Assembly: GCA_018823045.1 (NCBI GenBank)
Contig: JAHJIX010000020.1
Coordinates: 20,370 to 84,369, forward strand
Direction of reading: 5' to 3'
Source: Patescibacteria group bacterium
GTDB lineage: Bacteria > Patescibacteriota > Patescibacteriia > Magasanikbacterales > UBA922
DNA: 64,000 bases
In this document: positions 1,902 to 53,519 of the stretch, in pieces
Position numbering within the stretch: the stretch's first letter is position 1
How the letters are laid out: every line of letters starts with the position of its first letter
Notes under the pieces: generated by a model
What the model saw: only the letters and a program-made list of their open reading frames with translations
The model's database searches: none
What the model was told of the DNA's origin: nothing
Translations under genes and position numbers: made by a program

Positions 1902-1925
1902 ACATTCAAAACTAAAAACTTACGC

Positions 1926-3565: not shown

Positions 3566-3648
3566 ATATGATAAAAAACATAGCCATTTATAGGTCAGGC
3601 TATGTCTATTTTATCTTGTTTTGACTCTCTTTGCAAGTAAAAAGTCCT

Positions 3649-3948: not shown

Positions 3949-3960
3949 AAAATCGCATTG

Positions 3961-4470: not shown

Positions 4471-4473
4471 AGA

Positions 4474-4974: not shown

Positions 4975-5003
4975 ATCTTTTAATTATTACTCGATTAATT
5001 CAA

Positions 5004-5522: not shown

Positions 5523-5557
5523 AATTTACTATATCACAACTCCTTAAACTCTTCGCC

Positions 5558-5588
5558 GGATCCATAGTCCCGATAGGGCTGTGGAGCC
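5558..5588. repeat. 31-nt palindromic repeat, copy 1 (GGATCCATAGTCCCGATAGGGCTGTGGAGCC), with partial inverted half-copy at 5643..5653
   Basis: Near-identical to copies at 7393..7423 and 17406..17436 (reverse orientation). Internal 10-nt inverted arms GGCTCCATAG/CTGTGGAGCC. Shared 5' extension GCCGGNTCC. Confidence 0.75.
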
Positions 5589-5676
5589 AAGGTACTTAAG
5601 CATATACGCTTCACAGCTTCTCCTGCCGAATCGGCGGGTCCAGACTATGGAGCGAGATATTTTGTCTTAATCTCAC

Positions 5677-6069
5677 TTAAATTAAATGACTATATTCAGG
5701 ATAGTTTTCTTTGATTAATTTTTTCCAATTGACTGTTTCGTTTCCGCTACCAAGATGATTTTTATGATATACAAGAAGTACTGCGACTTTTTTACCTTCG
5801 TTATCTACTACGAGTATACACCTATTTCCGGATGATTTCGGTGACACTTTTGTTTTTACGACACTAAACATCGTTTTTATTATCTGTATATCAGTATTAT
5901 CTACAATAACATCAGCAAGATCTGTTTTGAGCAGCATGTCGATACGCTCATACTGCCTAGTAATAGCACGAAGTGTCACATCCCATGCTCCTCGATACTT
6001 TTTTTCAAAACTTTTTATATAATGCCTACGAGCAAATGGTTCAAAGCTGACAAAGTAATTTTCCTCCAT
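5677..6069 (-). CDS. Candidate toxin partner of the Panacea-domain antitoxin (unknown fold)
   Basis: 130 aa ORF 9 nt downstream of, and on the same strand as, the HTH-Panacea gene. No recognisable family. Confidence 0.4.
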   Translation of the reverse strand: MEENYFVSFEPFARRHYIKSFEKKYRGAWDVTLRAITRQYERIDMLLKTDLADVIVDNTDIQIIKTMFSVVKTKVSPKSSGNRCILVVDNEGKKVAVLLVYHKNHLGSGNETVNWKKLIKENYPEYSHLI

Positions 6070-6077
6070 AGGCTCAA

Positions 6078-6797
6078 TTAGTAAATACCAGATGGATCTT
6101 CCTGAGTAATCAGTTCGTATGGGATGACTTCATTATCTCTACACAAAAAGTATGGCATTTGATCATGCGTAAACTTTACAATCTCTGGAGTTCGTTTCTT
6201 TTTCCACTTTCGAGCAATTGCTTTCATTAGTTTCATCTCATCTACAGAAAGACTAAAGTCTTTTTTCTTTTTCGACGCATCTGTTTCGCCAATTAATATG
6301 GAGTCTCTGTTTCTCTTTACGGTAATCAAACCTTCTTCTTCTAGCTCAGTAAGTGCTTGAAAATATGGAATAGGCACAGGACCATATGGAAGTTTTTTAT
6401 ATTTCATCCCGCTCATACTCTCTAAATGTTCGTAATACCATGCAAAATCTGCGAGGTACAATAGTTTTGCCAATTTCGTTTTTGGGATACACCCATCTCG
6501 ATCACTCCCCGCCATACGAATATAGGCCAAAAGCATTTGTTTATATTTTTCATAGTCTGGAATCATACCAGATTCTAAATCTTCAATATCAATACCAAAC
6601 ATATCTGCTAGTTTATGTGCTTCAGAAAGGGTGAGTTCACGTTTCCCCTGCTCAACAGCAAGATAAGAGGTACGAGCAATTTCTAATCGATTTGCTACCT
6701 CTTGTTGAGAAAAGCCACGCTTTTCACGTAACTCTTTGATAAATTGTGCGTATGCTTGACTCATATGTATGTTTGTTAATATACCCTTATATATCAT
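6078..6797 (-). CDS. HTH-XRE + Panacea (DUF4065/SocA-like) domain antitoxin-type protein
   Basis: N-terminal HTH_3 'FSQQEVANRLEIARTSYLAVEQGKRELTLSEAHKLADMFGI'. C-terminal 'TKLAKLLYLADFAWYYEHLESMSGMKYKKLPYGPVPIPYF' matches the DUF4065/Panacea core (KLxKLLYxAD…PxGPV). Confidence 0.6.
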   Translation of the reverse strand: MIYKGILTNIHMSQAYAQFIKELREKRGFSQQEVANRLEIARTSYLAVEQGKRELTLSEAHKLADMFGIDIEDLESGMIPDYEKYKQMLLAYIRMAGSDRDGCIPKTKLAKLLYLADFAWYYEHLESMSGMKYKKLPYGPVPIPYFQALTELEEEGLITVKRNRDSILIGETDASKKKKDFSLSVDEMKLMKAIARKWKKKRTPEIVKFTHDQMPYFLCRDNEVIPYELITQEDPSGIY

Positions 6798-6843
6798 AGT
6801 ATAGCATATTTGTCAATATCTTGACAGAGTAAGTACTAAATAT

Positions 6844-6872
6844 TGACAAATTACTGTGCATAAGTTACAATA
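6844..6872 (+). promoter_or_regulatory. Sigma70-like promoter (TTGACA-17-TACAAT)
   Basis: ttgaca 6844..6849, 17-nt spacer, tacaat 6867..6872. Lies upstream of the small ORF at 6924. A second TTGACA sits 30 nt upstream. Confidence 0.45.
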
Positions 6873-13819: not shown

Positions 13820-14518
13820 ATGAAAAAATCAATCGGCATAATCGGTGGCATGGGTATTGTTGCCACTGCATATACATTCAATAAAATCATCCAGCATGCA
13901 CAAAACATATACCAAGCACAATATGATGAAGAATACCCAGAAATATTTATTCATTCCCTTGCATTTGTAGGCTTAGATGAAACAGGAATCACAGATAAAA
14001 CACAAGTAACCCAAACCCTCATCAAATCAGCACAAAAGTTAGAACAACAAGGAGCAAATTATATTATTATCCCGTGTAATAGTGTGCATGAATATTACCA
14101 AGATATACAATCACAAATTTCTATTCCAATTATCCATATTGTAAAAGCAATGAAAGAACAAATTATTGATGAAGGCATTTCTTGTGTTGGGCTTCTTTCT
14201 TCTGAAAGCACAAATACATCTGGATTTTATTCAAACATGCTCAAAAAACATAATATTCAAGTGCTATCCGTAAGTCAAAGAGAACAACGATTGCTGAATA
14301 ATATTATTCTCAATGTTATGGGAGGAAAACAAAGTATTACCGACCAATCTGTTATGAAAAAAATCATAAATAGGCTCTATAAAGCCGGAGCTGAGGCCAT
14401 TATCCTTGGATGTACAGAACTTCCTGTTGCGTGGAAAGATCTGTCATTTCATATTCCAATCTATAATTCTGCATCTGTCCTTGCAGAAGCAGCGGTATCT
14501 TTTGCATATAATGACTAA
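13820..14518 (+). CDS. Asp/Glu/hydantoin racemase family (aspartate racemase-like)
   Basis: 'MKKSIGIIGGMGIVATAY' (GGMG motif) and 'ILGCTELPV' (second catalytic Cys). Start moved to the internal ATG at 13820. Confidence 0.7.
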   Translation: MKKSIGIIGGMGIVATAYTFNKIIQHAQNIYQAQYDEEYPEIFIHSLAFVGLDETGITDKTQVTQTLIKSAQKLEQQGANYIIIPCNSVHEYYQDIQSQISIPIIHIVKAMKEQIIDEGISCVGLLSSESTNTSGFYSNMLKKHNIQVLSVSQREQRLLNNIILNVMGGKQSITDQSVMKKIINRLYKAGAEAIILGCTELPVAWKDLSFHIPIYNSASVLAEAAVSFAYND

Positions 14519-14521
14519 TAT

Positions 14522-15514
14522 ATGAAATATACAAAACAAACATACCCAATCCAACAACTCCCCACAGGAGAAATACTATCTATTCATGCATATACATTCA
14601 CAGGATCACAAAAAAGACCAAAAATCTATCTTCAAGCCAACTTACACGGACCTGAAATTTTTGGAACCACACTCCTTGAAAAATGTATTACTTACTTAGA
14701 ATCACAAGAAGATATCTCTGGTTCTGTAACAATAGTTCCAACAGCAAACCCAATTGCAGTACAGCACACAAGCTATAATGCTCTCACTGGAAGATACAAC
14801 CCAATGACAGGGACTGATTGGAATAGAATATTTAAAGTAAATTCAAAAAATATAGAGGAACTAGGTGAACAAAAATACTATACCAAACAAGCAAAAAAAC
14901 ATGGGCAAACTATTGAAGACAAATTAGCAAATACCCTCCGATCTATCAGCGCTGGTTCTAGTCATATTTTAGATATTCATACAGCAGGAAGTAATTCAGT
15001 CCCGCATGTATTCCCATATGCAAAAAATTGGGAGGTATTTTTACCCCTCCAAGCAGAAGCTTATCTTCTTTGGGATGAAAAAAATACCATGGGGACTTTT
15101 GATGACTCTCATATTACACACTGGCATGAACATAATCCAAATCCTCCAGCTACTTGCGCCTGGGAGGTATATCATCATGGGAAAAATGATCTTGCTGTCT
15201 GTGAACAAAGATGGAAACAACTAAAAACATGGCTTGAATCTGTATGGGAAGATCAAGAAAAAAAAGAAACTCAGCCTCTTGTTTACTCTATACAACAATT
15301 ACATAATCTCCCCGCCCCAATAGCCGGCTATTACACATGGCTCGTAAAACCAGGTACAACAGTTAAACAAGGAGAAATATATGCAAGCGTATACCAACCA
15401 TGGCATCACAAAACTATTAAGTTAACCCATGATAAAGATTTTTATCTTTTGGGTAACTATGGTATTGATGCAATGAAAGAAGGAGAATGGATTGCAATGA
15501 TTATAGAACTCTAA
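14522..15514 (+). CDS. Succinylglutamate desuccinylase/aspartoacylase (AstE/AspA) family zinc deacylase, putative
   Basis: 'YLQANLHGPEIFGT' resembles the HGxE zinc-binding motif of the AstE_AspA family. 330 aa. Confidence 0.5.
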   Translation: MKYTKQTYPIQQLPTGEILSIHAYTFTGSQKRPKIYLQANLHGPEIFGTTLLEKCITYLESQEDISGSVTIVPTANPIAVQHTSYNALTGRYNPMTGTDWNRIFKVNSKNIEELGEQKYYTKQAKKHGQTIEDKLANTLRSISAGSSHILDIHTAGSNSVPHVFPYAKNWEVFLPLQAEAYLLWDEKNTMGTFDDSHITHWHEHNPNPPATCAWEVYHHGKNDLAVCEQRWKQLKTWLESVWEDQEKKETQPLVYSIQQLHNLPAPIAGYYTWLVKPGTTVKQGEIYASVYQPWHHKTIKLTHDKDFYLLGNYGIDAMKEGEWIAMIIEL

Positions 15515-26795: not shown

Positions 26796-27476
26796 TCATT
26801 TTCCTTTATTGCGTTTTTGTAAATGAAACCAATCAATGGCTTTGTTTAGTTCTTTTTTATTAAATTCTGGCCAAAATACATCAGTGAAATAGTATTCCGC
26901 ATACGTACTTTGCCATGGTAAAAAGTTAGATAATCGTTTATGCCCACCTGTACGAATAAGTAAATCTACATCCGGCATTCCTACTGTATCTAAGTAATCT
27001 CCAAAACTCTTTTCTGTCACATCTTCTACAGAAATATTTGACTGCATTATTTTTTGTACTGCACGAGTGATTTCATCACGTCCACCATAAGCAACCGCTA
27101 ACGTAAGCACAAGTGTTGACTCTGTATAAGTACTCGTTTTCTCTACCACCTCTTGTAATTTGTCTTGTGTTTTTTGTGGAAGCAATGACATATTGCCAAT
27201 CACCCGAAATTGTACATTGTTTTCAATAAACTTATCGAGAGAATCTACGAGCTTATTAAATAAAGAAAATAAATGTGCTAATTCTTCTTCACTGCGTTTT
27301 AAATTTTCTGTAGAAAGTGCATACAATGTTAAAAACTTCACATCATGCGCCATAACTTCTTTGACCACAGACAAAATATTTTTTGCCCCTTGTGTATGCC
27401 CTAATAATTTTGGCATACCACGCTCAGTTGCCCAACGACGATTACCATCCATGATAGCTGCGATATGTTGTATCAT
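26796..27476 (-). CDS. uppS: Undecaprenyl diphosphate synthase (cis-prenyltransferase)
   Basis: 'HIAAIMDGNRRWA' and C-terminal 'LLIRTGGHKRLSNFLPWQSTYAEYYFTDVFWPEF' are hallmark UPPS motifs. Confidence 0.85.
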   Translation of the reverse strand: MIQHIAAIMDGNRRWATERGMPKLLGHTQGAKNILSVVKEVMAHDVKFLTLYALSTENLKRSEEELAHLFSLFNKLVDSLDKFIENNVQFRVIGNMSLLPQKTQDKLQEVVEKTSTYTESTLVLTLAVAYGGRDEITRAVQKIMQSNISVEDVTEKSFGDYLDTVGMPDVDLLIRTGGHKRLSNFLPWQSTYAEYYFTDVFWPEFNKKELNKAIDWFHLQKRNKGK

Positions 27477-27718
27477 ATGCTCTGAATTAATGCTAATTTT
27501 TCTTTTCGAGATAATTGTTTTATGCGATACTCTTCTTGCGTTGCTTCTTTTTTGCCAGTGTACGCTTTAATGTACACCACCTCTACTGGTTGCCTTGGGC
27601 GTGTATATTTTGCCCCAAGTTTCTTTCCATTATGTTCTTGTATTCTCCGCTCCACATCTGTTGTGACACCAGTATAAAGTGTCTTGTCTGCACACTCAAC
27701 AATATAGACATACCACAT
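27473..27718 (-). CDS. GIY-YIG nuclease superfamily protein (YhbQ/UPF0213-like)
   Basis: 'WYVYIVECADKTLYTGVTTDVERRIQEHN' carries the GIY…YIG…R…E motif. 81 aa. Overlaps uppS by 4 nt. Confidence 0.75.
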   Translation of the reverse strand: MWYVYIVECADKTLYTGVTTDVERRIQEHNGKKLGAKYTRPRQPVEVVYIKAYTGKKEATQEEYRIKQLSRKEKLALIQSI

Positions 27719-27726
27719 ATTACTAT

Positions 27727-30723
27727 TTATAACAAGCCCAAAAACTCGATTAAATCATCTGAAAAACCAACCTCTTTTAAAATAACAAGTAAATCTTTTC
27801 CTTCTGATTCATGATGATTTTTAAAATTTAATAAATTTTTTTCAAATGTTTTTTTCTTTCCAGCAGCTATAGAAATAAACTCATCATAACTCATTTTTTT
27901 ATTTGGGTAATCATAATGCGTTAAAAATTCTTTAACAGCCTTTAGTGTAGCATCATCCCCCTCAAATACTCCCTCCCATTCTATCCATGGAGTATAAAAA
28001 CTTTCAAAAAACGCCGAATAACGCTCTAATTCTTCTTTATCAATACTTGCAAATGCAACTCTCCTTTCTTGCTCTAAAATTTCTTTGGATCGTCTTTTTT
28101 TTTCCAATGGAGACATCTTTTGTTTATTTATTCTCCTTACCACAGTCTCTTTTTTGGTATCTTCATCTGTAGTTTCTTTAATCATTTCTACTTGATACCC
28201 ACCTGACTCTTCTCCTACAACTAATTCATCTAAAAATTCAGCCTCTGCACCTTCAAGCGCTTGATCTCCCCCTGCAGTCGCATCAATTGGGACAACAGAA
28301 TATGACTCACCATTTGGCCAAAGAACAAATGATATTGCATGCCCATGTTTTTTTCGCACAGAATCTCCTCCATGCACAGAAAATCCTTCCATAGTCCCAG
28401 CCAAAAAACCAGCTTTTCTTAAAAGCATACTGGTAATCAAAGCAAAATCAGCACATACCCCTGTAATTTCTTTCGACTCGGCAATACTTGGGTTCTTTTT
28501 TTGCAATTGTTTCATCCTATCTTGCGCAAATTTCAAACGAAAATTAGGTTCTCCTGTATTATTTTTTTCACTACTGACATCTCCATTATCAAAATCATAA
28601 TAGCCAATATATTTAATAAAGCTTTTTATTTCAATTAATTTTTCATGTGGTGCTAAATCTGAAATTTCCTCTAAAAATTCTTCCCAATTTGGTGCAATTT
28701 CTGTCAAAAGATCTTCAGATAGTGCTCTAAATTCTTCATGCTCTTTCTTTGCTAAAAAACTACTCTTCCAGGTATCATAATCTTCTGTTCCTAATGACTC
28801 TAAATCTGGGAAAGGACTATATTTCTCTCGAAGAATAACATCTACCAAAGATCGAGTACGACCATCTACCGTATCAATAGAATCTTCCCCAATATCAACA
28901 AAAAACCTTCCCTTATTATCTTTTTTTACAACGACTTCTTCTTTTGTTCTCCCATCATCTTTAAACGCCCGCAATTCTTCTTCATTTGTTCCTAAAAACA
29001 CAGGAATGTATATAATATGATCTTTGATTCTTTCTCCTGAAATTACAAGATCTTCCGCCATATGTGCAGTATCACTTTCCAAAGAAATATTTAAAGATCC
29101 CCACGTCTTCTTTTTCGAATCATATACTCCATATACTCCTTGCACCAGCATCTGTTCTGCAGGTAAATCTTCTCCATAACTGGATATCAACTCATGCATG
29201 ATCCCTTTTTGCTCATCGGCAATATCATCCCGAGGATTTCCACCGTCGCAAGAAGTAGTATCTTGATGAGCAAATGCATCCACATCATTAGCCTCATGTG
29301 CCTGCTCTAGTATTTCTGATACAACATCCGTCTCATAAATATCACCCTTTAAAACACCTTTTAATATCTCTGCATATGAAGACATATCTTCTTGACCAGT
29401 ATGCGCAGTCATAAACTCAAAAGGATAATCCCCTAAGGCTCTTTGTGCTTCAAATAAATCTCGTAAAACGATTTGCCCATCATCAAATAAACGAATAATG
29501 TTCCGCTTATACCACTGTTCCGCTAACTTAGACATTTGTTCATACTTTTTTAGTCGATTCAAATATAACTGATATTCTCTATATGTATCAATAGGAGCTT
29601 CAATCATGTTTAATAATTCTAATTCTCCAGTAACATCATCTTCTGATGTATTTACTTGCTCCCAAGTATCTGTACTTTCATCAAACATAATATATGCACC
29701 CTTTTTCTCAATTGCTTCTAAAACTTCTTCACGAGCCTGCTTTTCCATAATGACACTGACAACATCCCCTTTGACTCGTTTATATTTTAATTTTAAAATT
29801 TGTTCTTCAGTAATTTCAGTTGGCCACACATTTTCCAATTCTTCTAACGTTACAAATTTTTTATTAAAAAAAGATTCAATCTTTTCAAGATTCTCACTAC
29901 TGAGAGGTTGTCCATTTCCAGTAGAAGAAAACAATATTTTAAACGTAGAGTTTGGTCCATAAAAATGTTTGACTGTTTTAAATAAAGGTTCAAATATAAC
30001 TTCTTCTACAGAATGCCTATCAAAAACAAAATCACCCAACCGTTTTTTTTCATACAAAAATCTATGTGTCAAACGAAAATTATCTTCCATTAATGTTTCT
30101 CTATTTTTTTCTATATACTCGCGAATACCCCTTGGCAGTTCAAATTTCTTTGGAATCGGTCTTAATTTTTCTCTATCTCGAATCAACTCTTGAAAAAATT
30201 CATCAATAAATGCTACATATTTTTTAAAATCTATCGATACATTATGAAAACGGCTTACCATACTTTGATCCACTTCTTGAAAAGGATTTTCTAACATGCC
30301 TGCAATAACCCCCCCATGATTATAGTTCATCTCCATCCCAGGGGGGGCGCTATTCCCCCACCCCATCATTTCTTCAAATAAATCAGGATATAAAGCAACG
30401 AGTCTTTGCCCATGATGCTGTAAGGTATCCTTGAGTAATGCTTGACGCTCTGGTGTTTGCATAAAAAATTCAATCCCTTCATAGATTGAATATCCTAAAA
30501 TTTTTTCTACCACAAACATTTGCTCTTCTGCTGAAGCATTATTCAAAATATCTTCAAATCTTTCCTCAAGGTTATTAAAAAACTCTACCCTATTTTTAAT
30601 AGACTCATTATATAATACTTCTCTTTTGTTTTCTTCTTCCACTTGAGTAGAATTTTCTTGAGATCGTTTAGCCGTATCTAAATCAGGAATTCGACTATCC
30701 AAAGGCAAAAAACTATGGGGCAT
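27727..30723 (-). CDS. Large cytoplasmic protein with transglutaminase-like (papain-fold Cys-His-Asp) core; paralog of 34721..37741
   Basis: 998 aa with no signal peptide or TM. Core 'ITGVCADFALITSMLLRKAGF…HGHAISFVLWP…VVPIDATAGG' matches the GxCxxFA…H…D transglutaminase-core pattern. Long flanking regions of unknown fold. Confidence 0.6.
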   Translation of the reverse strand: MPHSFLPLDSRIPDLDTAKRSQENSTQVEEENKREVLYNESIKNRVEFFNNLEERFEDILNNASAEEQMFVVEKILGYSIYEGIEFFMQTPERQALLKDTLQHHGQRLVALYPDLFEEMMGWGNSAPPGMEMNYNHGGVIAGMLENPFQEVDQSMVSRFHNVSIDFKKYVAFIDEFFQELIRDREKLRPIPKKFELPRGIREYIEKNRETLMEDNFRLTHRFLYEKKRLGDFVFDRHSVEEVIFEPLFKTVKHFYGPNSTFKILFSSTGNGQPLSSENLEKIESFFNKKFVTLEELENVWPTEITEEQILKLKYKRVKGDVVSVIMEKQAREEVLEAIEKKGAYIMFDESTDTWEQVNTSEDDVTGELELLNMIEAPIDTYREYQLYLNRLKKYEQMSKLAEQWYKRNIIRLFDDGQIVLRDLFEAQRALGDYPFEFMTAHTGQEDMSSYAEILKGVLKGDIYETDVVSEILEQAHEANDVDAFAHQDTTSCDGGNPRDDIADEQKGIMHELISSYGEDLPAEQMLVQGVYGVYDSKKKTWGSLNISLESDTAHMAEDLVISGERIKDHIIYIPVFLGTNEEELRAFKDDGRTKEEVVVKKDNKGRFFVDIGEDSIDTVDGRTRSLVDVILREKYSPFPDLESLGTEDYDTWKSSFLAKKEHEEFRALSEDLLTEIAPNWEEFLEEISDLAPHEKLIEIKSFIKYIGYYDFDNGDVSSEKNNTGEPNFRLKFAQDRMKQLQKKNPSIAESKEITGVCADFALITSMLLRKAGFLAGTMEGFSVHGGDSVRKKHGHAISFVLWPNGESYSVVPIDATAGGDQALEGAEAEFLDELVVGEESGGYQVEMIKETTDEDTKKETVVRRINKQKMSPLEKKRRSKEILEQERRVAFASIDKEELERYSAFFESFYTPWIEWEGVFEGDDATLKAVKEFLTHYDYPNKKMSYDEFISIAAGKKKTFEKNLLNFKNHHESEGKDLLVILKEVGFSDDLIEFLGLL

Positions 30724-30793
30724 ACAATATCTATTAAAATAAATAAGCTATTACTTAATTAAGTATAGCATATTATATTATTTATGGGCATGA

Positions 30794-34720: not shown

Positions 34721-37700
34721 TTATATTGGTTCATTCACCTCTGGATATGTTCTCAATCCCAAGTCATTCCATGTAAAAGCAACCCCTTTTTTTTGTGCAT
34801 TGAGAGCATCTCTTGTTCTTGTTCTAGCTGTAATACATAATAAATGTTCTGGAATCACTGTTTTTTTTCCTTCTGTTATCCGTAAATCATGGGACTCCTC
34901 TGAACAAACATTATGGAATATATCCTTTAATAAACGCATGTCTGTATTTGGCAGTATCTCATAATAAATTCCACCATATCCTTGCTCTGTAATATAAATT
35001 GGATACTTATATTTTTTAACAAATTCTTGAACAGTATCCAAAAATAATTCTTGAGCAAGCTTATCATTTATATTAAAACCACCCAATATATCTTCAAATG
35101 CAATATACAATGGTTGTTTTTTTTGTTCAGGATCTTTTACTCTTCGTGCTACTGGGTTTTTACCAGGACGTCTTACACTTGCCGACCATATAATATCTTT
35201 CATTCTATGGATATCTGGATTATATTCTTCTGGATCAGAAAGAAAATCATTTCCACCTTTTTGGATATTTGCATGTTTTTTAAGTAAAGTAAATATTTTC
35301 TTTTTTAATACTCTTTTTTGTTTTTCTGGAATATGAAACAGCATAGCTAATTCACTATATGTTGTTTCTAGTTCATACTCTTCATTATTTTCTTCATATT
35401 CTGCTAAAATCCTTCTAAGAGTTGCATTACTTGCAGGAATGTGTTTTCTTGGACTCCTATTTCGACTATAAATTGGTGCAATATTTTTCACTTCTAATCG
35501 CCAAAATTTAGAAGGAATACCAAATGTTTCTTCTAATTTTCTTTGTACTTTTTTATTTGTAAATGCTTGGTAATAGAGCCTCCAAAAAATCTTTTCTTCT
35601 AATACCAATTTTTTATCCATCGATAATGTTCCCAATTTATTTTTCAATACATCTTCAGCAAAATCTTCTAGTTCATCATCTTCTCGTTGCATTTTTTCTA
35701 AATCGTTCATATCTATCTCTTGAAATATGGTATACACAACATTTTCAAACTCTGGACTAAACGAAAAATGAGTAAAATCAATTGAAATATTTTCCTCAAT
35801 CCTATAAATCTCGCCACAATATTCTGGTGAAATACACAATGCATAAAAATCTTCAATATCTTTTATTTGCTGAATAATTTCTTCTCTTCGCTCTGAAAAA
35901 TCTTTTGCGATTATTGGATTAAACAAAAATTCACCTAGATTAGAAAGATACTCAATCTTGTCACCACGAAGTAATGCCTCAATATCTTTGATGTCATCCT
36001 GAATTGTAATAGTAGGAATGTCACCAAAAGCAATTTGTTTTTCGCTACAAATTCTTACAATATGACGAATTTCGTTCACCCGATATAATAATTCACTTAA
36101 ATCTAACTCTCTTATCAACTGTGTTCCTTTATATAAATCATGATATGCCTGTATTGTATCACCACTTATTTCTATCTGATGCGTTTTTTCTATTCTGGCA
36201 TGTTCTTCTTCAAATGAAACTGGTAAAATTTGTCCTACAAATTCTACTCCTTCCACAGGATTCTCTACCCTTGGAGCAAGATTAGCTGCTTGATTTGGAT
36301 ATTTTTCTATGACACGCATAATATCTAGACGCATATCACGCAGTAAGTGTCGTTTTTCCTGTTCATTTTCTGCTTGAGCATATTTTTTCTTAAATGCTTC
36401 AAATAACTCTTGTGGGAAATAATTATCTAGAGAAGAAGCCACTTCACAAAATGTAGTGGCATCAAATACCTGTAAATTATGATGACGATCTGGAATCTGT
36501 ACCCGCGCATGTCCACTTACCGCAAAAGCAGTTCCATCCTTTGTTGTGACTTTTTCATGTGTAATAATTGCTGGGATACCTAATTGTCTAAAATATACTG
36601 ATGAAACCCAAGAAAGATAATCACAATGCCCCATTTGTAATTCATCCATAATCAGTGGTAACTCATCACTATTATGACGCAAAAAATCACCAAGTGTTTT
36701 ATGATTGACATAATAAAAATGCTTCCGAAGATGTCCTGCAATCAAAGAAGGGATATCCTCAGGAAATTTTTTTGCATGTTCTTTTATCTGTTCTGGTAAG
36801 GGTAATACTGCTGACCAATACTCTTGTTCCGCTTGTGAAGGAGTAAATTCATTTGTATTTAATTGAATTAATCGTTTATCTTTTTCAATATAATACTCGT
36901 TTACATGTCCTTTTACTAAACGAGTAGTTAATGGGTCGCTCGGATGATTTATAATACAAGAAGCAGATTGATCTACTGCAACCAAACGTCCCCCCAATGG
37001 CATTGGAATCGTTTCTCCCTCCCAAATAGAACCTGCTGAACTTATTTTTATTTGATTAGGCAAACTATGATCTTGCTGTGGTATATTTTGAATAAATCCT
37101 TTTACAGCAGCATAATTTTCATCATATTGTAAATCTGTAGGAAGTATACGGGGTGATAAACCACGTGCTGTGGGAGTTGCAATTTCATATACAAAAGAGG
37201 TACTTGGTACTGGTGGATAAATCTTTCCTCCAGCACCTTTTCCTTCTAATTCCTCTAGATTCCGTCCGATACTATCCATAGCAGATAAAGAGGTTTCCAT
37301 TCCAGTAATCCCCATTTCTTCTGGCTGCTGAATTTTTAAAATATCCTGTGGGAGAGCCTCTCTGTATGAGACAGCAGAGGGTGTTTTTATCACACCTTTA
37401 ATCCGAGTAATTTGTATTTGTTCTTGCTGAAGTTTGTCCTGCAACTCATCAATTTGTGCTAATAACATTTCATGACTTATATCTTCTGATATAGCATACC
37501 TCTCAAAAAAGACTTTTTTTGCCGCTTCAGCATGTATTTGACTATGATCTGATTTTTTAGATATATCAGTTGTCAAAATATGACGAACATAATCCAAAAA
37601 ACTTTGTTGTGCTTCTAGTCCTTGATGAAAAACATTCTTATACCTTTCCACTTGATCTAAAAATGCAGATCCTTCAGGATTGATAACAGGAGCCACTTCT

Positions 37701-37741
37701 TTAAATGATGGTATAGAGATTCTTCCTTCAGCCAAATTCAT
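34721..37741 (-). CDS. Large cytoplasmic protein with transglutaminase-like Cys-His-Asp core; divergent partner of the T4CP-like operon
   Basis: Start set at the internal ATG at 37741 ('MNLAEGRISIPS'). The 115 N-terminal residues of the ORF-track frame are hydrophobic read-through of the intergenic region. Core 'QMGHCDYLSWVSSVYFRQLGIP…SGHARVQIPD…LQVFDATTF'. About 1006 aa. Confidence 0.6.
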   Translation of the reverse strand: MNLAEGRISIPSFKEVAPVINPEGSAFLDQVERYKNVFHQGLEAQQSFLDYVRHILTTDISKKSDHSQIHAEAAKKVFFERYAISEDISHEMLLAQIDELQDKLQQEQIQITRIKGVIKTPSAVSYREALPQDILKIQQPEEMGITGMETSLSAMDSIGRNLEELEGKGAGGKIYPPVPSTSFVYEIATPTARGLSPRILPTDLQYDENYAAVKGFIQNIPQQDHSLPNQIKISSAGSIWEGETIPMPLGGRLVAVDQSASCIINHPSDPLTTRLVKGHVNEYYIEKDKRLIQLNTNEFTPSQAEQEYWSAVLPLPEQIKEHAKKFPEDIPSLIAGHLRKHFYYVNHKTLGDFLRHNSDELPLIMDELQMGHCDYLSWVSSVYFRQLGIPAIITHEKVTTKDGTAFAVSGHARVQIPDRHHNLQVFDATTFCEVASSLDNYFPQELFEAFKKKYAQAENEQEKRHLLRDMRLDIMRVIEKYPNQAANLAPRVENPVEGVEFVGQILPVSFEEEHARIEKTHQIEISGDTIQAYHDLYKGTQLIRELDLSELLYRVNEIRHIVRICSEKQIAFGDIPTITIQDDIKDIEALLRGDKIEYLSNLGEFLFNPIIAKDFSERREEIIQQIKDIEDFYALCISPEYCGEIYRIEENISIDFTHFSFSPEFENVVYTIFQEIDMNDLEKMQREDDELEDFAEDVLKNKLGTLSMDKKLVLEEKIFWRLYYQAFTNKKVQRKLEETFGIPSKFWRLEVKNIAPIYSRNRSPRKHIPASNATLRRILAEYEENNEEYELETTYSELAMLFHIPEKQKRVLKKKIFTLLKKHANIQKGGNDFLSDPEEYNPDIHRMKDIIWSASVRRPGKNPVARRVKDPEQKKQPLYIAFEDILGGFNINDKLAQELFLDTVQEFVKKYKYPIYITEQGYGGIYYEILPNTDMRLLKDIFHNVCSEESHDLRITEGKKTVIPEHLLCITARTRTRDALNAQKKGVAFTWNDLGLRTYPEVNEPI

Positions 37742-37878
37742 AAAATAAAAAATATTGAAATAAATAAACTTTCTTAGAGTATAGCATATTATATTTTTTA
37801 TAAAAACAACAAATTGCAAATTGAAAGATATAGTACATTTCTCATTTTTTTGATATAATAAAAGAGACTTCTTTTCTT

Positions 37879-38439
37879 TTGTTATATATGCCATCTTTTT
37901 TGCAAAAAAATGATCAAGAATCTCCAGGGATTCCTTTTGAACAAACACCACAATCACTGGAATACATCCCACAACAACCAGAACAGCCCATCCAAGAACT
38001 TGGGCCTGAATTTGAATTGACCAAAGAAAACATTCCTCAACCACAAGAACAAGAAGAAACTGTTGATTCAGCAATTCACTCACTCAAGAAAAAACTTCGT
38101 CGTCAAAAAAAGGCAAAACCAACGAGCATTCCGATTGTGCGCGACAAGCTCACTCTTGAAGTAGAGCATATTATGGAAGAAGGGCTCAAAGAAGCCTTTA
38201 CTTCTCTCTCCCCTATTGAACGACAAGAATTTAAAATAAAAGGAGAACAAACAGCAATTCAAATTAGACAATTACTCAAAAAAACACATGTAAAAGTAAA
38301 ATCAATTTTCAAACTCCTTTTTGAATGGTTAAAATTACTTCCAGGGGTCAATCGATTCTTCTTAGAACAAGAAGCAAAAATTAAAACAGAAAAAATACTT
38401 GGTCTCCACGAAAAACACAAAGCCATGAACAAATTTTAA
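37879..38439 (+). CDS. Hypothetical protein with P/Q/E-rich disordered N-terminus and basic helical C-terminus
   Basis: 186 aa. 'PQQPEQPIQELGPEFELTKENIPQPQEQEE' low complexity. 18 nt upstream of the T4CP-like gene, so probably co-transcribed. Confidence 0.4.
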   Translation: MLYMPSFLQKNDQESPGIPFEQTPQSLEYIPQQPEQPIQELGPEFELTKENIPQPQEQEETVDSAIHSLKKKLRRQKKAKPTSIPIVRDKLTLEVEHIMEEGLKEAFTSLSPIERQEFKIKGEQTAIQIRQLLKKTHVKVKSIFKLLFEWLKLLPGVNRFFLEQEAKIKTEKILGLHEKHKAMNKF

Positions 38440-38457
38440 ATCGCATTTCCATACAAT

Positions 38458-41028
38458 ATGCTTTTTCAATTAACGATTAATCCCTACGGCCAATCTCCTG
38501 TTGCGGGTGTACAAATTACAGAACAAATGCTCATGATTGGGTTATTTATTCTTTTTATTGTCACTATTCTTTTAGCGGGACTCTTTATCCTCCGCGCAAT
38601 ACTTCATAGTAAAAATGAAAAATTAGCCGCATTTAACCGAGTGGTCATGCAAATACAAGTGCCAAAAGAGAGAAAGTCCGAAGGACAAGGCGGGCAAGCA
38701 GGAAGTGATGATCGATTAGAGCATATTAAAGAAGAAATTGGAATTACTGAAACATTTTTTTCTACTGTAGCAGGGCTAAAAGCAAAAAAAGGATTCCTAC
38801 ATTGGTTTAATGGAAAATCAGAAGATATCGCATTTGAAATCGTCATGCACAATGGCCTTATTTATTTTTATATTGATGTCCCAAAAAAGATTCAGTCATT
38901 TATTGAACAACAAATTCATGCGCAATACCCACATGCAGAAATTGACATCATGACTGACTATAATATTTTTACCGAACAAAGTACTATTTTAGGTGCTTAC
39001 CTATATGCAGAAAACAAACATGTCTTTCCGTTTAAAACATACAAAACAATGGACTCTGACCCATTGTCGGCGATATTAAATGTTCTTGCAAAAATTAGAG
39101 AGCATAATAGTAGTGCGGCAATTCAATTTGTGGTACGTAGTGCAAAAAAATCATGGCGTAGTGAAGGAATTCGGATTGTGCGAGAAGTAAAACAAGGAAA
39201 AAAGTTTGAAGATGTCACAGAAAAATCAGCACTCAAAAGTTTTTTCAAAAATAGTGGAAAAACAATGGGTGAACTTCTTCGAGACAAAAAGAAAGATGAA
39301 GCACCAGAAAAACAATACCAACTCTCTGGCATGGAAGAAGAAATGTTAAAAGGGGTAGAAGAAAAACTCAGCAAAGGTGGAATTGAAGTCACTTTACGTG
39401 TTATGACAGCGTCAGACAACCCGATACTCGCACAAAGTCATTTAGATAATCTGCTCAATTCATTTAGTCAATACAACCTCTATCGCTACGGAAATAGTTT
39501 TAAAGCAGCGGTTCCTCGAAATCAAAAAAGATTAATCCAAGATTTTATTTATCGAACATTTGAACCAAAATGGGGCATGACGTTTAATACAGAAGAAATG
39601 GCTTCTGTCTGGCACTTACCTCTTCATTCAACTGAAGCCCCAAATATTAAATGGCTATCAGGAAGAAGTGCACCACCACCACCGAATTTGCCAGATTCAG
39701 GATTACTTATGGGTTTTGTTGACTATCGTGGGCAAAGAAATGATGTTTTTCTAAAAGAAGCAGACAGACGACGCCATCTCTATATTATCGGAAAATCTGG
39801 AAGTGGTAAATCAGTAACAATTGCAAACTTAGCTATTCAAGATATTCAAGATGGCAAAGGAGTATGTATTGTTGACCCACATGGAGATTTAGTTGAAGCA
39901 GTACTCCAACATGTTCCAAAACACCGTGCTGATGATGTTATTATTTTTAATCCATCTGATTTAGATCGTCCAATTGGACTAAACATGCTTGAACCAAAAA
40001 CAGAAGACCAACGAGATTTTGCTGTACAAGAAATGATTGGAATTTTTTATAAACTCTTCCCGCCTGAAATGATTGGACCAATGTTTGAACATCAAATGAG
40101 AAACGTCATGTTAACGCTCATGGCCGACATCAATGATCCTGGAACAATTATTGATATTCCACGGATGTTTACTGATGATGATTATGTCAAAATTTATCTT
40201 GATCGCGTGACAGACCCAGTTGTGCGTGCATTTTGGGAAAAAGAAATGGCAAAAACAAGTGACCATACCAAATCTGAAATGCTTGGATATTTGGTTTCTA
40301 AAGTTGGACGTTTTGTTGGGAATGAAATGATGAGAAACATTATGGGACAACAAAAATCTGCGCTTGACTTCCGTGATATCATGGATAATGAAAAAATATT
40401 ACTCGTCAATCTTGCAAAAGGAAAAACAGGAGAAGTCAACTCAAAACTTCTTGGATTAATTATTGTAGCAAAACTTCAAATGGCTGCAATGGGGCGAGCT
40501 GACATGGAAGAAGCAGATCGAAAAGATTTTTATCTCTATATAGACGAGTTCCAAAACTTTATTACAGACTCTATTTCAACTATCTTATCTGAGGCACGAA
40601 AATACAAACTCGATTTAATTGTTGCCCACCAATATATGGGACAACTCGTTGATGATAAAGGAAAAGCAGACGTACGCGACGCAATTCTTGGAAATGTAGG
40701 TACAATACTGTCTGGACGTATTGGTCCTGATGATGCAGAAATTTTAGCAAAAGAATTTGCACCAGTGTTTGGATCATATGATCTCATCAATGCACCACAA
40801 TATTCTTTTTATGCAAAGATGTTAATTGACAATCAAGCAAGTAAACCCTTCCTCATGCGTGCTTATCCACCAAAAGAAGGAAACAAAGAACTTGCTGCAG
40901 CAATTACTCAACTCTCTCGTTTAAAATATGGACGAAATAAACAAATTGTTTCTGCTGAAATTATTGAACGGTCAAAACTTGGTGAAATCACAAAAGGAGA
41001 CACATCACTATCTGAAGCAAGTTTGTAA
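38458..41028 (+). CDS. Membrane-anchored type IV coupling protein-like ATPase (VirD4/TrwB/TraG family) with ~390-aa unique N-terminal domain
   Basis: N-terminal TM 'MLMIGLFILFIVTILLAGLFILRAIL'. Walker A 'RRRHLYIIGKSGSGKSVTIANL…GKGVCIVDPHGDL' (TrwB_AAD_bind-like). Walker B 'FYLYIDEFQNF'. C-terminal 'LDLIVAHQYMGQL…ILGNVGTILSGRIG' (TraG-D_C-like). Confidence 0.65.
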   Translation: MLFQLTINPYGQSPVAGVQITEQMLMIGLFILFIVTILLAGLFILRAILHSKNEKLAAFNRVVMQIQVPKERKSEGQGGQAGSDDRLEHIKEEIGITETFFSTVAGLKAKKGFLHWFNGKSEDIAFEIVMHNGLIYFYIDVPKKIQSFIEQQIHAQYPHAEIDIMTDYNIFTEQSTILGAYLYAENKHVFPFKTYKTMDSDPLSAILNVLAKIREHNSSAAIQFVVRSAKKSWRSEGIRIVREVKQGKKFEDVTEKSALKSFFKNSGKTMGELLRDKKKDEAPEKQYQLSGMEEEMLKGVEEKLSKGGIEVTLRVMTASDNPILAQSHLDNLLNSFSQYNLYRYGNSFKAAVPRNQKRLIQDFIYRTFEPKWGMTFNTEEMASVWHLPLHSTEAPNIKWLSGRSAPPPPNLPDSGLLMGFVDYRGQRNDVFLKEADRRRHLYIIGKSGSGKSVTIANLAIQDIQDGKGVCIVDPHGDLVEAVLQHVPKHRADDVIIFNPSDLDRPIGLNMLEPKTEDQRDFAVQEMIGIFYKLFPPEMIGPMFEHQMRNVMLTLMADINDPGTIIDIPRMFTDDDYVKIYLDRVTDPVVRAFWEKEMAKTSDHTKSEMLGYLVSKVGRFVGNEMMRNIMGQQKSALDFRDIMDNEKILLVNLAKGKTGEVNSKLLGLIIVAKLQMAAMGRADMEEADRKDFYLYIDEFQNFITDSISTILSEARKYKLDLIVAHQYMGQLVDDKGKADVRDAILGNVGTILSGRIGPDDAEILAKEFAPVFGSYDLINAPQYSFYAKMLIDNQASKPFLMRAYPPKEGNKELAAAITQLSRLKYGRNKQIVSAEIIERSKLGEITKGDTSLSEASL

Positions 41029-41082
41029 AATAGAAACAACTACGCTATAATATACTTTCTATTCACAAAAATAAATATACAT

Positions 41083-41703
41083 ATGGATCATATTGGATCA
41101 ATTTTACAACCACCTGCAGGACAAAAAATTGTCAATCAAGAAGAAAACACATTCCATCTTGATCTTGACACAATCGATATGCAAGATACAGAACAAATTT
41201 CTGCAGGAACAACAGAATTAAAAAAAATGATCTATCATATGCAAGAGCAACTCAACACAATGCTCTCATTGATTGAATCTGGTATTCCACTTCCAACAGC
41301 AGTCAAACCTATATTAAACAACACAGAAGACGACTCAAACGCAATTGAAGGAGTGTTTAATGGTGAAGCAATGATTGGAGAAGATGGCAATACATATACC
41401 ATTCCACCAAACTACGCAAGTAAATCTAAACTCATTGAAGGCGACTTACTAAAAGTAACCGTTGACCCTACTGGTCGCTACATCTTTAAACAAATAATGA
41501 AGACCGCACGCAAGCTTGTTAAAGGATCACTGATTAAAGGAAATGACGAACACAAATGGCAAGTACTTGTTGATGGTCGCATATATAAAGTGCTGACTGC
41601 CGCAGTAACATTCCACAAAGGTATAGAGGGTGCAGAAGTAACACTCATTATTCCAGAAAATGGAGAAAGTGACTGGGGATCAATTGAACGCATTATTTCT
41701 TAA
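41083..41703 (+). CDS. Hypothetical protein, last gene of the T4CP-like operon
   Basis: 206 aa with no TM or signal peptide. 54 nt downstream of the ATPase gene. Followed by terminator 41740..41767. Confidence 0.45.
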   Translation: MDHIGSILQPPAGQKIVNQEENTFHLDLDTIDMQDTEQISAGTTELKKMIYHMQEQLNTMLSLIESGIPLPTAVKPILNNTEDDSNAIEGVFNGEAMIGEDGNTYTIPPNYASKSKLIEGDLLKVTVDPTGRYIFKQIMKTARKLVKGSLIKGNDEHKWQVLVDGRIYKVLTAAVTFHKGIEGAEVTLIIPENGESDWGSIERIIS

Positions 41704-41739
41704 ACTATTAAAACTAGCTAAATACCATCAATAAAAAAA

Positions 41740-41767
41740 GAAGTACTTTATTAGTACTTCTTTTTTT
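41740..41767. terminator. Bidirectional intrinsic terminator (GAAGTACT-TTATT-AGTACTTC + T7)
   Basis: Perfect 8-bp palindrome flanked by A-run and T-run. Lies between the convergent 41083..41703 (+) and SWIB (-) genes. Confidence 0.6.
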
Positions 41768-41779
41768 ATATAATATATT

Positions 41780-42049
41780 TTACGCTTTATCTGGATCAGT
41801 TAAATGTCCTGATACTAATTTTGTCATTTCAAACATAGTAACTTCATCTTTACCAAAGATAGGACGTAAAAGATCATCTGCAAAAATATTTCTTTTGTTC
41901 TCTGGATTTTGAAGATTATGTTTTTTAATGTATTCCCAAATCTTCTTAACAACTTGTGTTCTTGGAGTTGGACCTTTTCCAATAACCGCTTCTAACTCTG
42001 GTGAGAGGTTAAGTGGCTTAGCCAATGCTGGATTTAATTTTCGTACCAT
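41780..42049 (-). CDS. SWIB/MDM2-domain protein
   Basis: 'LSPELEAVIGKGPTPRTQVVKKIWEYIKKHNLQNPENKRNIFADDLLRPIFG' is a canonical SWIB domain. Start moved to 'MVRKLNP' at 42049. Confidence 0.7.
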   Translation of the reverse strand: MVRKLNPALAKPLNLSPELEAVIGKGPTPRTQVVKKIWEYIKKHNLQNPENKRNIFADDLLRPIFGKDEVTMFEMTKLVSGHLTDPDKA

Positions 42050-42186
42050 ATGTGTGCTACTATTAAGAATAGATAAGTAACTTACACTGAGTATAGCATA
42101 CCCTGAAAAAAGAGGCAACACCTTCTCCTTTACCTCTCCTCCATTCTACGCTATACTATACGAGATATATTTGATTTGAATTTGAT

Positions 42187-43806
42187 ATGGCACTTTACCA
42201 CACCCACCGACCACAAACTTTTGATGATATTTTAGGACAAAAACACATCATTCAAACAATCACGAACCAAATCCTACAAGAAAAAGTAGCCCATGCATAC
42301 TTATTTTTTGGTCCTCGAGGTATTGGAAAAACTACCACAGCAAGACTACTAGCAAAAGCTGTTAATTGTACAGAAAAGAAAAAAGACACATATGAGCCAT
42401 GTAACACTTGTGCGGCCTGTACAAGCATTACACAGGGGTCTGCTATTGATGTGATTGAGATTGATGCAGCAAGCCACACTGGTGTTGATCACGTTCGTGA
42501 ACACATTATTGAAAACGCTCAATTTAAACCAACAACTTGTGCCAAAAAAGTATTTATTATCGACGAGGTGCACATGCTTTCAACCAGTGCATTTAATGCG
42601 CTCTTAAAAACACTCGAGGAACCACCGGCACACGTCATGTTTATTTTAGCTACAACAGAATTACATAAACTTCCTGCAACCATTATTTCTCGCTGTCAAC
42701 GATTTACGTATGAATCAATTAGCCACGACGACTTACATGGCTATTTAAAAAATATTGCAAAAAAAGAAGGGCGAACACTTGATGAAGATGTCATTGAGCG
42801 CATTATTATAAAAAGTGATGGCTGTGTGCGTGACGCAGTAAGCTTACTTGAACAAGTTCTTTCTTTTGGAAGTGAACATATTACAATTAACGATGTACTT
42901 CATATACTTCCTCCCGTATTTTCAGAAGATACACGAGAACTGGTATTTTCTATCCTTGAAAATAATCCAACAGAAGCACTTCACAAATTGCACCACATGT
43001 ATGCACAAAATATGCATATGATTGAATGCATCGATACATTAATTGATGTACTACGCACACTCATGATTACTTCTGTGAATCCAACAGCAATATCAAACTA
43101 TGGTTTTGATAAAGAAATTACAAAAAAAATCAAATCCTTCCATAAACAATATAAACCAAATTACTACATTACACTTATCGAATCAGCAATGAAACGTAGA
43201 GGTCTCATTAAACAAAGCCCAATTGAGACACTTCCATTGGAATTATTTATTATCGAATGGACAGACACGACAAAAGCAACTACTGTTATTTCAGAAGAGC
43301 CAGTTCCTACTCCCCCACAAGAAAAAGCGCCAAAGCTAATAGTAGAAACACCTGCTCCAGCAGCTCCTAAAAAAGTTGAAGAAGAAATACCTACACCAGA
43401 AGAACCGGCCCCTGTAGCAGAAAAAAAAGCGCCACAAGAAACTCCTGCACCTCTACCAGAAACATCTTCTGAACCAATGGCAATCACAAAAGCAAATATT
43501 TTATCTATCTGGAATGCCTTTTTAGAACGAGTAGAAAAAGAATCCGCATCACTTGTCTATATTGTAAAAACACTCGAAGTGGTATCAATAAAAGATCAAC
43601 TTATTACCTTTACGGTTCCATTTGCGTTTCATAAAGACAAACTTACTGATACAAATTGCCAAGCAAGTCTGACACAAGCACTCTCTGATTTGCTACAAAC
43701 CCCTGTTTCATTTGAAATCGATGTTGTTAAAAAAGAAGGAGATGGGACAGCCCCTGCAAAAGACATTCAACAAGTTGCAGATGCATTTGGTGGTGAAGTC
43801 ATGTAA
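42187..43806 (+). CDS. dnaX: DNA polymerase III subunit gamma/tau
   Basis: 'HAYLFFGPRGIGKTTTARLLAKAVNC', zinc module 'CNTCAACTSI', 'IIDEVHMLS' and sensor 'SRCQRF'. P/E/A-rich linker before the C-terminal domain. Confidence 0.85.
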   Translation: MALYHTHRPQTFDDILGQKHIIQTITNQILQEKVAHAYLFFGPRGIGKTTTARLLAKAVNCTEKKKDTYEPCNTCAACTSITQGSAIDVIEIDAASHTGVDHVREHIIENAQFKPTTCAKKVFIIDEVHMLSTSAFNALLKTLEEPPAHVMFILATTELHKLPATIISRCQRFTYESISHDDLHGYLKNIAKKEGRTLDEDVIERIIIKSDGCVRDAVSLLEQVLSFGSEHITINDVLHILPPVFSEDTRELVFSILENNPTEALHKLHHMYAQNMHMIECIDTLIDVLRTLMITSVNPTAISNYGFDKEITKKIKSFHKQYKPNYYITLIESAMKRRGLIKQSPIETLPLELFIIEWTDTTKATTVISEEPVPTPPQEKAPKLIVETPAPAAPKKVEEEIPTPEEPAPVAEKKAPQETPAPLPETSSEPMAITKANILSIWNAFLERVEKESASLVYIVKTLEVVSIKDQLITFTVPFAFHKDKLTDTNCQASLTQALSDLLQTPVSFEIDVVKKEGDGTAPAKDIQQVADAFGGEVM

Positions 43807-44020: not shown

Positions 44021-44092
44021 TCGGAGATCGTCTAATGGTAGGACACTTGGTTCTGGTCCAAGGTATCAGGGTTCGAATCCTTGTCTCCGAGC
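44021..44092 (+). tRNA. tRNA-Gln (anticodon CUG)
   Basis: Cloverleaf: acceptor TCGGAGA/TCTCCGA; anticodon stem CTTGG/CCAAG with loop TTCTGGT (anticodon CTG); T-arm CAGGG-TTCGAAT-CCTTG. CCA not encoded. Terminator hairpin at 44107..44127. Confidence 0.8.
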
Positions 44093-48672: not shown

Positions 48673-48769
48673 GTCTAATAGATATAATAAACAATTCTAT
48701 TATTTCATCTTTTCAAGCTATTCTGCTATAATAATATTACGATGTATTTCATATTTAATAGATAGTTAT

Positions 48770-53444: not shown

Positions 53445-53519
53445 ATGTATGTTTCTATTAAAAATACAAATAACTCATCGGTGTAAATAGTATAACACAA
53501 GTAGTAAAGATAGGTCTAG

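Follow-up and report, generated by a model that had tools for sequence, protein, structure and literature searches.

A compact transglutaminase-like protein and a separate orphan behind a probably generic extended -10 promoter in a Patescibacteria genome

We analysed a 64,000-nucleotide stretch of a Patescibacteria group bacterium (assembly GCA_018823045.1, contig JAHJIX010000020.1, positions 20,370 to 84,369 of the forward strand; hereafter the window) with regard to two large minus-strand genes, referred to as A and B, each of which is preceded by the same 18-nt block, AATATAATATGCTATACT. A preliminary description of this DNA had taken their products for co-regulated paralogues. Our analysis instead makes it likely that A is a compact member of a family built around a TgpA-like module, that B is a separate orphan, and that both stand behind a generic extended -10 promoter. 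The conserved centre of the A family would be the TgpA-like module with its intact Cys757-His795-Asp814 triad; A and B would each be served by a promoter that this genome uses repeatedly (the 11-nt core TATGCTATACT, without a good -35 element and followed by a leader of ~30 nt that lacks a Shine-Dalgarno (SD) sequence), and the promoter of A would probably drive a GIY-YIG gene and uppS as well. The features of A and B, in window coordinates, are as follows.

27727..30723, minus strand: gene A, a 998-residue open reading frame (ORF) with an ATG start, from the ORF list and its translation
29587..30657, minus strand: N-terminal region of A (residues 23-379), a family-profile match without a known domain
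28120..29328, minus strand: TgpA-like module of A (residues 466-868), from a family profile (240 bits) and AlphaFold 2 (AF2) with Foldseek
28453..28455, minus strand: codon of the predicted catalytic Cys757 of A (in GVCADFA), a conserved column in family alignments
28339..28341, minus strand: codon of His795 of A, triad partner, conserved column
28282..28284, minus strand: codon of Asp814 of A, triad partner, conserved column
34721..37741, minus strand: gene B, a 1006-residue soluble orphan (NCBI KKG22_01025)
36623..36625, 36509..36511 and 36461..36463, minus strand: codons of the candidate triad of B (C373, H411 and D427, respectively), in a transglutaminase-like signature

The ORF call and its translation confirm A at the position and length first given for it, and the three motifs by which the protein had been recognized (ITGVCADFALITSMLL, HGHAISFV and PIDATAGG) are all present; an identical NCBI protein is KKG22_01000, a hypothetical protein of "Patescibacteria group bacterium" on a 115-kb contig. 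A word-indexed homologue search with A returned only the query itself. This null reflects the sensitivity limit of such a search, because an exhaustive HMMER search against 1.84 billion cluster representatives then gave 217 distant relatives at E<=1e-3, 186 of them at E<=1e-10. The matches all lie within residues ~460-980 of A (mostly 520-870), and the relatives are large proteins, mostly of 1000-1500 residues (median 1234, longest 3489). Few members carry names: these are "transglutaminase-like domain-containing protein" of Patescibacteria group bacterium, hypothetical proteins of Patescibacteria or Parcubacteria, and HEAT-repeat proteins, and wherever a source is named it is Patescibacteria, Parcubacteria or just "bacterium".

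Homology between A and this family extends beyond the catalytic core. A profile built without A finds it with an overall E-value of 1.6e-80: profile positions 12-336 match residues 23-379 (24.1 bits, E 7.6e-10, hmmsearch), a region in which Pfam detects no domain, and residues 466-868 score the 240 bits given above, with ~460 profile positions between the two matched stretches missing in A. A two-part match of this kind, lacking its middle, identifies A as a compact full-length member, and we conclude that A is a shortened representative of an uncharacterised family of large soluble Patescibacteria transglutaminase-like proteins. PF01841 is found at E<=1e-3 in 23 of 33 family members, with no other recurrent domain, and its Pfam gathering score is passed by four of eight members scanned individually (P0003, 32.7 bits; P0005, 34.0; P0044, 27.9; P0011, 25.2). 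The whole of protein A gives no PF01841 match in Pfam; since A falls below the threshold that its homologues exceed, its membership rests on transitive homology.

Both family alignments (21 and 33 sequences) show Cys757 and His795 without variation, and Asp814 is invariant in the smaller and at least 90% conserved in the larger. An AF2 model of residues 480-998, built with 20 homologues (predicted template modelling score 0.65), is mostly confident over residues 480-820 (predicted local distance difference test score, pLDDT, of ~75-94 with short dips) and unreliable in the tail; the confident part forms a beta-sandwich, a helical linker and a transglutaminase-like (papain-fold) core. When this module is compared with the PDB by Foldseek, TgpA ranks first (6g4h, E 6e-6; 6g49, E 8e-6; probability 1.0, template modelling score on the target 0.55-0.57), followed by the putative cysteine protease 3isr (E 4e-3) and, weakly, by TglA and animal transglutaminases. 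At the level of sequence, the A1 profile reaches 3isr at an insignificant E of 0.5, and a PDB sequence search with protein A yielded nothing relevant. Homologues that pass PF01841, a conserved triad and a TgpA-like model fold together substantiate the claim that A is transglutaminase-like, and A is most likely a cysteine-dependent protein-modifying enzyme, predicted to be a protease, transglutaminase or deamidase. It is a strongly acidic protein (net charge -71) with just two cysteines, the predicted nucleophile being one of them. A hydrophobicity scan found no transmembrane, signal or other hydrophobic segment in either A or B, and 134 of 149 relatives of A are likewise without a hydrophobic segment. 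The earlier label of "cytoplasmic" stands to the extent that such a composition fits a soluble protein, although it does not prove solubility or location; because it carries neither signal peptide nor membrane segment, A is predicted to act, most likely, inside the cell.

If A and B were paralogues, a pairwise alignment should centre on the Cys-His-Asp core, as the preliminary description anticipated. No alignment beyond chance was obtained by BLASTP, family profiles or hhalign. The best BLASTP E-values (0.1 and 0.13) belong to regions that contain neither putative core; A-family profiles score B at -1.1 and -4.6 bits (hmmsearch), placing it 18th among the 135 ORFs of the window and making it indistinguishable from unrelated genes; phmmer with B against 150 A-family members gave nothing at E<=10; B is absent from the best 150 of A's 217 HMMER relatives; and hhalign of the A-family alignment against B returned a probability of 0.27% (E 0.22). 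What had been described as the same core architecture reduces to a Cys...His...Asp signature of ~70 residues, beyond which nothing aligns, and this signature sits at 76% of the length of A (C757/H795/D814) versus 37% of that of B (C373/H411/D427).

It nevertheless has to be weighed whether A and B descend from an old duplication and have diverged past recognition, retaining the catalytic core and its Cys-to-His spacing. Both proteins carry G-x-C-x2-[FL]-[AS]...R-x2-G-[FI]-x-A...H-A...D-A-T with 38 residues from Cys to His in each, PF01841 is the sole Pfam match of the B core fragment, and the single stretch aligned by hhalign runs from core to core. To this may be added that in a 59% GC relative (locus L047) the space between the two blocks of genes conserved with the window (the T4CP-like cluster and metG-cvpA-tatD, described below) holds an A-family gene, just where B is found in the window; this position is not interpretable. 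Among 860,000 translated residues, a pattern formulated from the two cores matches nothing but A, B and one known family member, and it is absent from all of 200,000 shuffled versions of B, but the test is circular because the pattern was written after both proteins had been seen. The Cys-His-Asp signature is, moreover, common to the whole superfamily; none of the statistics above is significant, the cores occupy different relative positions, and the family-specific N-terminal domain, beta-sandwich and linker of A are not detected in B. We regard an ancient duplication as unlikely, and B, as judged from sequence, is not a demonstrable paralogue of A.

B is better described by what its own sequence offers. 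The stretch GHCDYLSWVSSVYFRQLGIPA...GHARV...FDATT has the canonical transglutaminase-like signature and spacing (GHCDY...RQLGIPA...GHA...FDAT, 38 residues from Cys to His and 16 from His to Asp) in this single sequence. The core fragment matches one Pfam family, PF01841, at 14.3 bits (E 0.052), short of its cut-off of 23. Word-indexed searches with the whole of B or with residues 181-481 found no homologues, a metagenome-contig scan for relatives produced 58 pattern matches of which none was confirmed, and PDB sequence searches with B, its core or its C-terminus gave nothing meaningful and no transglutaminase-like entry. The structure prediction that had been proposed for the long flanking regions succeeded in part: the module of A could be modelled and is TgpA-like, whereas the tail of A is unreliable and a single-sequence AlphaFold model of B (pLDDT 36) is unusable. 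Protein A has no match in NCBIfam, PADLOC or PHROGs, and whole protein B none in Pfam, NCBIfam or PHROGs and a negligible one in PADLOC (ZacB, E 0.03), so that a known defence or phage role is not indicated for either. B is an orphan that may at most belong to the same very broad superfamily as A, on one sub-threshold motif. At its C-terminus (residues ~790-1006, 34721..35370), EEYNPDIHRMKDIIWSASVRRPG is followed by a beta-alpha pattern that we take to resemble DUF58 (VWA-like), a resemblance that Pfam and PDB searches did not confirm; EEYNPD..R..DIIWSASVRR in the same region presumably recalls the DUF58 motif, again unsupported by Pfam. DUF58 (VWA-like) proteins often accompany transglutaminase-like proteins.

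The second half of our argument concerns the shared block, for which motif counts cover the 64-kb window and ~79 kb of this genome in all (64 kb plus ~15 kb). The relevant sites are the following.

30762..30779, minus strand: 18-mer AATATAATATGCTATACT upstream of A, exact match, within the 70 nt that follow the K+ channel gene
37778..37795, minus strand: 18-mer AATATAATATGCTATACT upstream of B, exact match, in the 146 nt that separate B from the divergently oriented small gene at the head of the T4CP-like cluster
30762..30770, minus strand: likely extended -10 element TGCTATACT upstream of A, 38 nt before the ATG
42090..42100, minus strand: the 11-nt core TATGCTATACT, third copy; the ATG of the SWIB-domain gene 41780..42049 follows after 40 nt
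6798..6808, minus strand: fourth copy of the 11-nt core TATGCTATACT, 33 nt before the ATG of the HTH/SocA_Panacea gene 6078..6761

The 18-mer occurs exactly twice in the window, both times on the coding (minus) strand of A and B, and no further site with up to three mismatches was found there (0.2 expected by chance). The identical block noted earlier is thus real, if 2-3 nt away from where it had been placed; from 5' to 3' end it runs from 56 to 38 nt before the ATG of A and from 54 to 36 nt before that of B, such that the "~47-50 nt upstream" of the preliminary description denotes roughly the middle of the block. The TATAAT and TG-n-TATACT reported within it are both there. In composition the block is the 11-nt core TATGCTATACT, a TG-extended -10 element, joined to seven AT-rich spacer bases, and the core by itself occurs four times in the window where base composition predicts ~0.085, always on the coding strand, always 33-40 nt before an ATG, and in front of functionally unrelated genes (A, B, the SWIB gene and the HTH/Panacea gene). 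The looser pattern TGnTAnAnT is found upstream of 11 of 34 listed regions, including those of metG and a histidine kinase, and the promoter of B is one more case. The -35 position is poor at both the A and the B copy (three of six matches to TTGACA), for which reliance on the TG extension would be expected; the leaders of ~30 nt are AT-rich and contain no SD sequence. A generic promoter scanner was uninformative (60 sites found versus 64 expected).

Outside this organism, in a genome collection to which the genome of the window does not belong, the exact 18-mer was found at 41 loci in unrelated genomes, including Clostridia, Bacteroidia and several Patescibacteria, with unrelated genes downstream. 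A TTGACA-like hexamer (at least four of six matches) stands 16-18 nt upstream, usually 17 nt, in 24 of 37 distinct foreign 18-mers, compared with a background of 14%, and eight of these 24 hexamers are perfect. This recurrence in unrelated genomes, mostly with a TTGACA-like box, marks the 18-mer as a generic sigma-70 promoter segment consisting of spacer and extended -10 element. Its promoter-like nature, proposed at the outset, is accordingly upheld by the extended -10 element and by its recurrence before genes. The motif search in which unrelated downstream genes would signify a generic promoter gave a divided answer, with the 41 foreign loci and the core before unrelated window genes on one side and, on the other, the full 18-mer confined to A and B within the window. 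We take the block to be largely the standard strong promoter of this organism. In two other genomes, A-family genes are likewise preceded by a TGnTATAAT element; other lineages do not keep the 18-mer itself in front of their A-family genes, and a metagenome-contig scan for the promoter-plus-leader pattern gave no match.

The genes downstream of A bear on the same question. A GIY-YIG gene (27473..27718) and uppS (26796..27476), ORFs with Pfam matches to GIY-YIG and Prenyltransf respectively, follow on the same strand:

26796..27718, minus strand: GIY-YIG gene and uppS together

The GIY-YIG gene starts 8 nt after A and overlaps uppS by 4 nt; because of this spacing, the GIY-YIG gene and the essential uppS are probably transcribed with A from the promoter of A. 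A promoter that probably drives an essential gene fits a constitutive housekeeping role better than membership of a special regulon.

Several observations weigh against reading A and B as separate genes behind a generic promoter. The regions upstream of A and B are the most similar of 378 pairs, with a local alignment score of 33 against a mean of 10.1 (standard deviation 2.9); 24 of 25 bases around the -10 element are identical and both leaders contain TTATTTATTT; and this extra identity is not fully predicted by a generic consensus alone. Sampling of the genome for the promoter motif is limited to the 64 kb plus ~15 kb. On the protein side, A lies below the PF01841 cut-off (fragment at 18.3 bits, E 0.0028, versus 23), and the promoter function, the operon structure and the enzymatic activity are predictions. 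The likeness upstream of A and B is best read as that of two near-consensus promoters, one of which was possibly copied from the other.

Such copying, by local recombination or gene conversion of a promoter-leader cassette of ~55 nt across 7 kb, would make the likeness historical and not functional. It would explain why near-perfect identity over 25 nt resumes in the leader after an indel (the leaders share a 14/15 stretch, TTATTTATTTnAATA) and ends at the ATG, with unrelated coding sequences beyond. The stretch is, however, short, AT-rich and interrupted by gaps, no flanking repeats or mobile-element signatures were seen in a repeat search limited to this motif, and no close relative of the genome was found by which the event could be dated; we hold a copied cassette to be improbable as the whole account.

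Specific co-regulation of A and B, the central proposal of the preliminary description, was not borne out, given that the core precedes unrelated genes and that the 18-mer is present in 41 foreign genomes. In its strongest form the proposal would treat the shared extra bases, ATAAAnAATATAA upstream of TATGCTATACT and TTATTTATTTnAATA in the leader, as the site of a dedicated regulator or as the promoter of a small regulon, perhaps including the SWIB and HTH genes. The ranking of upstream pairs speaks for it, in that A-SWIB (score 24) comes second after A-B among the 378; so does the TA that directly precedes the TG in all four exact 11-mers, and the partial presence of the leader motif at the SWIB gene and at the genes at 48770 and 53127. 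Set against this, no functional link is evident among the four genes that follow the 11-mer, the extra shared bases form an AT-rich spacer in a genome of 35% GC and contain no inverted or direct repeat typical of an operator, uppS is probably served by the promoter of A too, the same 18-mer recurs as a plain sigma-70 promoter in many unrelated bacteria, and the block is not kept upstream of A-family genes elsewhere. We judge a dedicated regulon of this kind to be quite unlikely. The most far-reaching proposal, in which the A family is a lineage-defining Patescibacteria enzyme (for cytoplasmic protein modification or as an exported anti-host effector) and A and B form a linked pair on a deliberately matched promoter-leader cassette, B being an extremely diverged second copy at the chromosomal position that corresponds to that of the A-family gene in the syntenic relative, we consider very improbable.

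The proximity of B to a T4CP-like operon had suggested that the two proteins serve alternative partners. The blocks in question are these:

37888..43806 in the window: T4CP-like cluster, comprising a small gene (183 residues), a T4CP/HerA-like ATPase (856 residues), a gene for a 206-residue protein, and dnaX
1290..6857 and 20759..23655 in L047: syntenic blocks, covering the T4CP-like cluster and metG-cvpA-tatD

Both the cluster and the metG-cvpA-tatD block are conserved in the 59% GC relative. The ATPase, which has an N-terminal membrane segment, is 46% identical over 844 residues to the L047 copy, whose precomputed Pfam list includes DUF8128. Upstream of the cluster L047 has cysS (CysRS) and no B-like gene, so B is not a conserved neighbour of the T4CP-like cluster and the idea of alternative partners is not borne out. 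The cluster appears to be a conserved element of the chromosome in these bacteria, not a piece of a mobile conjugation system.

A number of further observations concern these genes and their surroundings. Four ordinary genes separate A from B (K+ channel, tatD, cvpA and metG, by Pfam), and the promoter block of A falls within the 70-nt gap between it and the K+ channel gene. On base composition we reject horizontal transfer of A or B, the GC fraction running from 0.29 to 0.37 along the region without a sharp break. A riboswitch or structured leader was rejected as well: Rfam gave no match, and shuffled sequences fold at least as well as the leaders do. At Rfam gathering score the whole window yields one match, a single tRNA gene at 44021..44091.

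In two Magasanikbacteria metagenome-assembled genomes the identical 18-mer lies ~48 nt upstream of a small GIY-YIG gene (L019 3238..3255; L020 2246..2263), a homologous-looking version of which is the GIY-YIG gene 8 nt downstream of A in the window; this pairing may be coincidence, or A may have been inserted between an old promoter and the GIY-YIG/uppS genes. No conserved operon partner was found among the neighbours of A-family members in five other genomes. In three other genomes A-family genes adjoin clpB and/or precede a gene of ~50 codons and a UbiE-type methyltransferase, surroundings that suggest an ancestral neighbourhood which the copy in the window has left.

L042 7189..8267; L046 5806..8499 and 13875..15060; L047 14052..16691: A-family neighbourhoods (the ~50-residue gene is L33 in L046)

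Directly upstream of the TATGCTATACT core of the HTH_19 and SocA_Panacea gene lies an inverted repeat, TGTCAAGATATTGACA (6809..6840, minus strand), which is a plausible candidate for the autoregulatory operator of a Panacea-type toxin-antitoxin-like regulator. A further TGnTATAAT, at 37851..37859 on the plus strand, stands 28 nt ahead of the ATG of the small first gene in the T4CP-like cluster, back-to-back with the promoter of B and ~70 nt from it, giving the 146-nt gap two divergent extended -10 promoters. Several SD-less genes carry TTAATAG or TTTAATAGA ~8-20 nt before the ATG, within a TTATTTnTTT-like leader; the organism may use it as a signal in translation initiation or in the leader, or it may reflect AT-rich chance.

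30726..30745, 42053..42075, 48745..48765 and 53448..53470 in the window: TTAATAG/TTTAATAGA sites

Had the original proposal held as posed, the window would contain two unusual enzymes under a dedicated regulon of their own, perhaps linked to a secretion-type ATPase; the evidence does not support this. What the analysis provides instead is twofold. A joins a sizeable Patescibacteria family (at least 186 clusters at 50% identity) of which no member has been studied, and for which the domain layout is now defined, catalytic residues are predicted and TgpA serves as structural analogue, a starting point for biochemistry; the proteome of this phylum is mostly unannotated, and the A family offers one entry point to it. 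The window also supplies a clean promoter example for the organism (TATGCTATACT, no -35 box, an AT-rich SD-less leader) that could aid the calling of gene starts and operons.

Comparison with known systems places both elements. The promoter resembles the extended -10 (TGnTATAAT) class of sigma-70 promoters in that TGCTATACT matches eight of nine positions, offsets a poor -35 and lies 33-40 nt before start codons; it differs in the unusual faithfulness with which the exact 11-mer is reused, four times in 64 kb, and the transcription start here is a prediction from sequence. For the TgpA-like module, the reference is TgpA (PA2873) of Pseudomonas aeruginosa, an essential inner-membrane protein of 688 residues with six transmembrane helices, whose periplasmic domain has transglutaminase activity in vitro (PMC3507681). 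TgpA is the best structural match of the A module, and the two have in common a beta-rich N-terminal subdomain followed by a PF01841-type core with a Cys-His-Asp triad. The TgpA domain is periplasmic and membrane-anchored, whereas A has no transmembrane or signal segment; identity is just ~11-12%, A adds ~465 residues before the module and ~130 after it, and the activity demonstrated in vitro for TgpA is for A a prediction from sequence and model. With PF01841/COG1305 proteins at large (e.g. 3isr, from Cytophaga hutchinsonii), A and its family have the catalytic signature and fold in common; typical COG1305 proteins are of ~300-700 residues, whereas the A family is much larger and has conserved N- and C-terminal regions of its own, and A itself is under the Pfam gathering threshold. 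The true family of A is that of the large Patescibacteria "transglutaminase-like domain-containing" or "HEAT repeat domain-containing" proteins, such as MBU0647997.1, MFC1616164.1, MEN9647757.1 and HKY64626.1; although A is shorter (998 residues versus a median of ~1230) and without the conserved NGELE...LN...VK..H tail present in most members, it has both the N-terminal region and the TgpA-like module in common with them.

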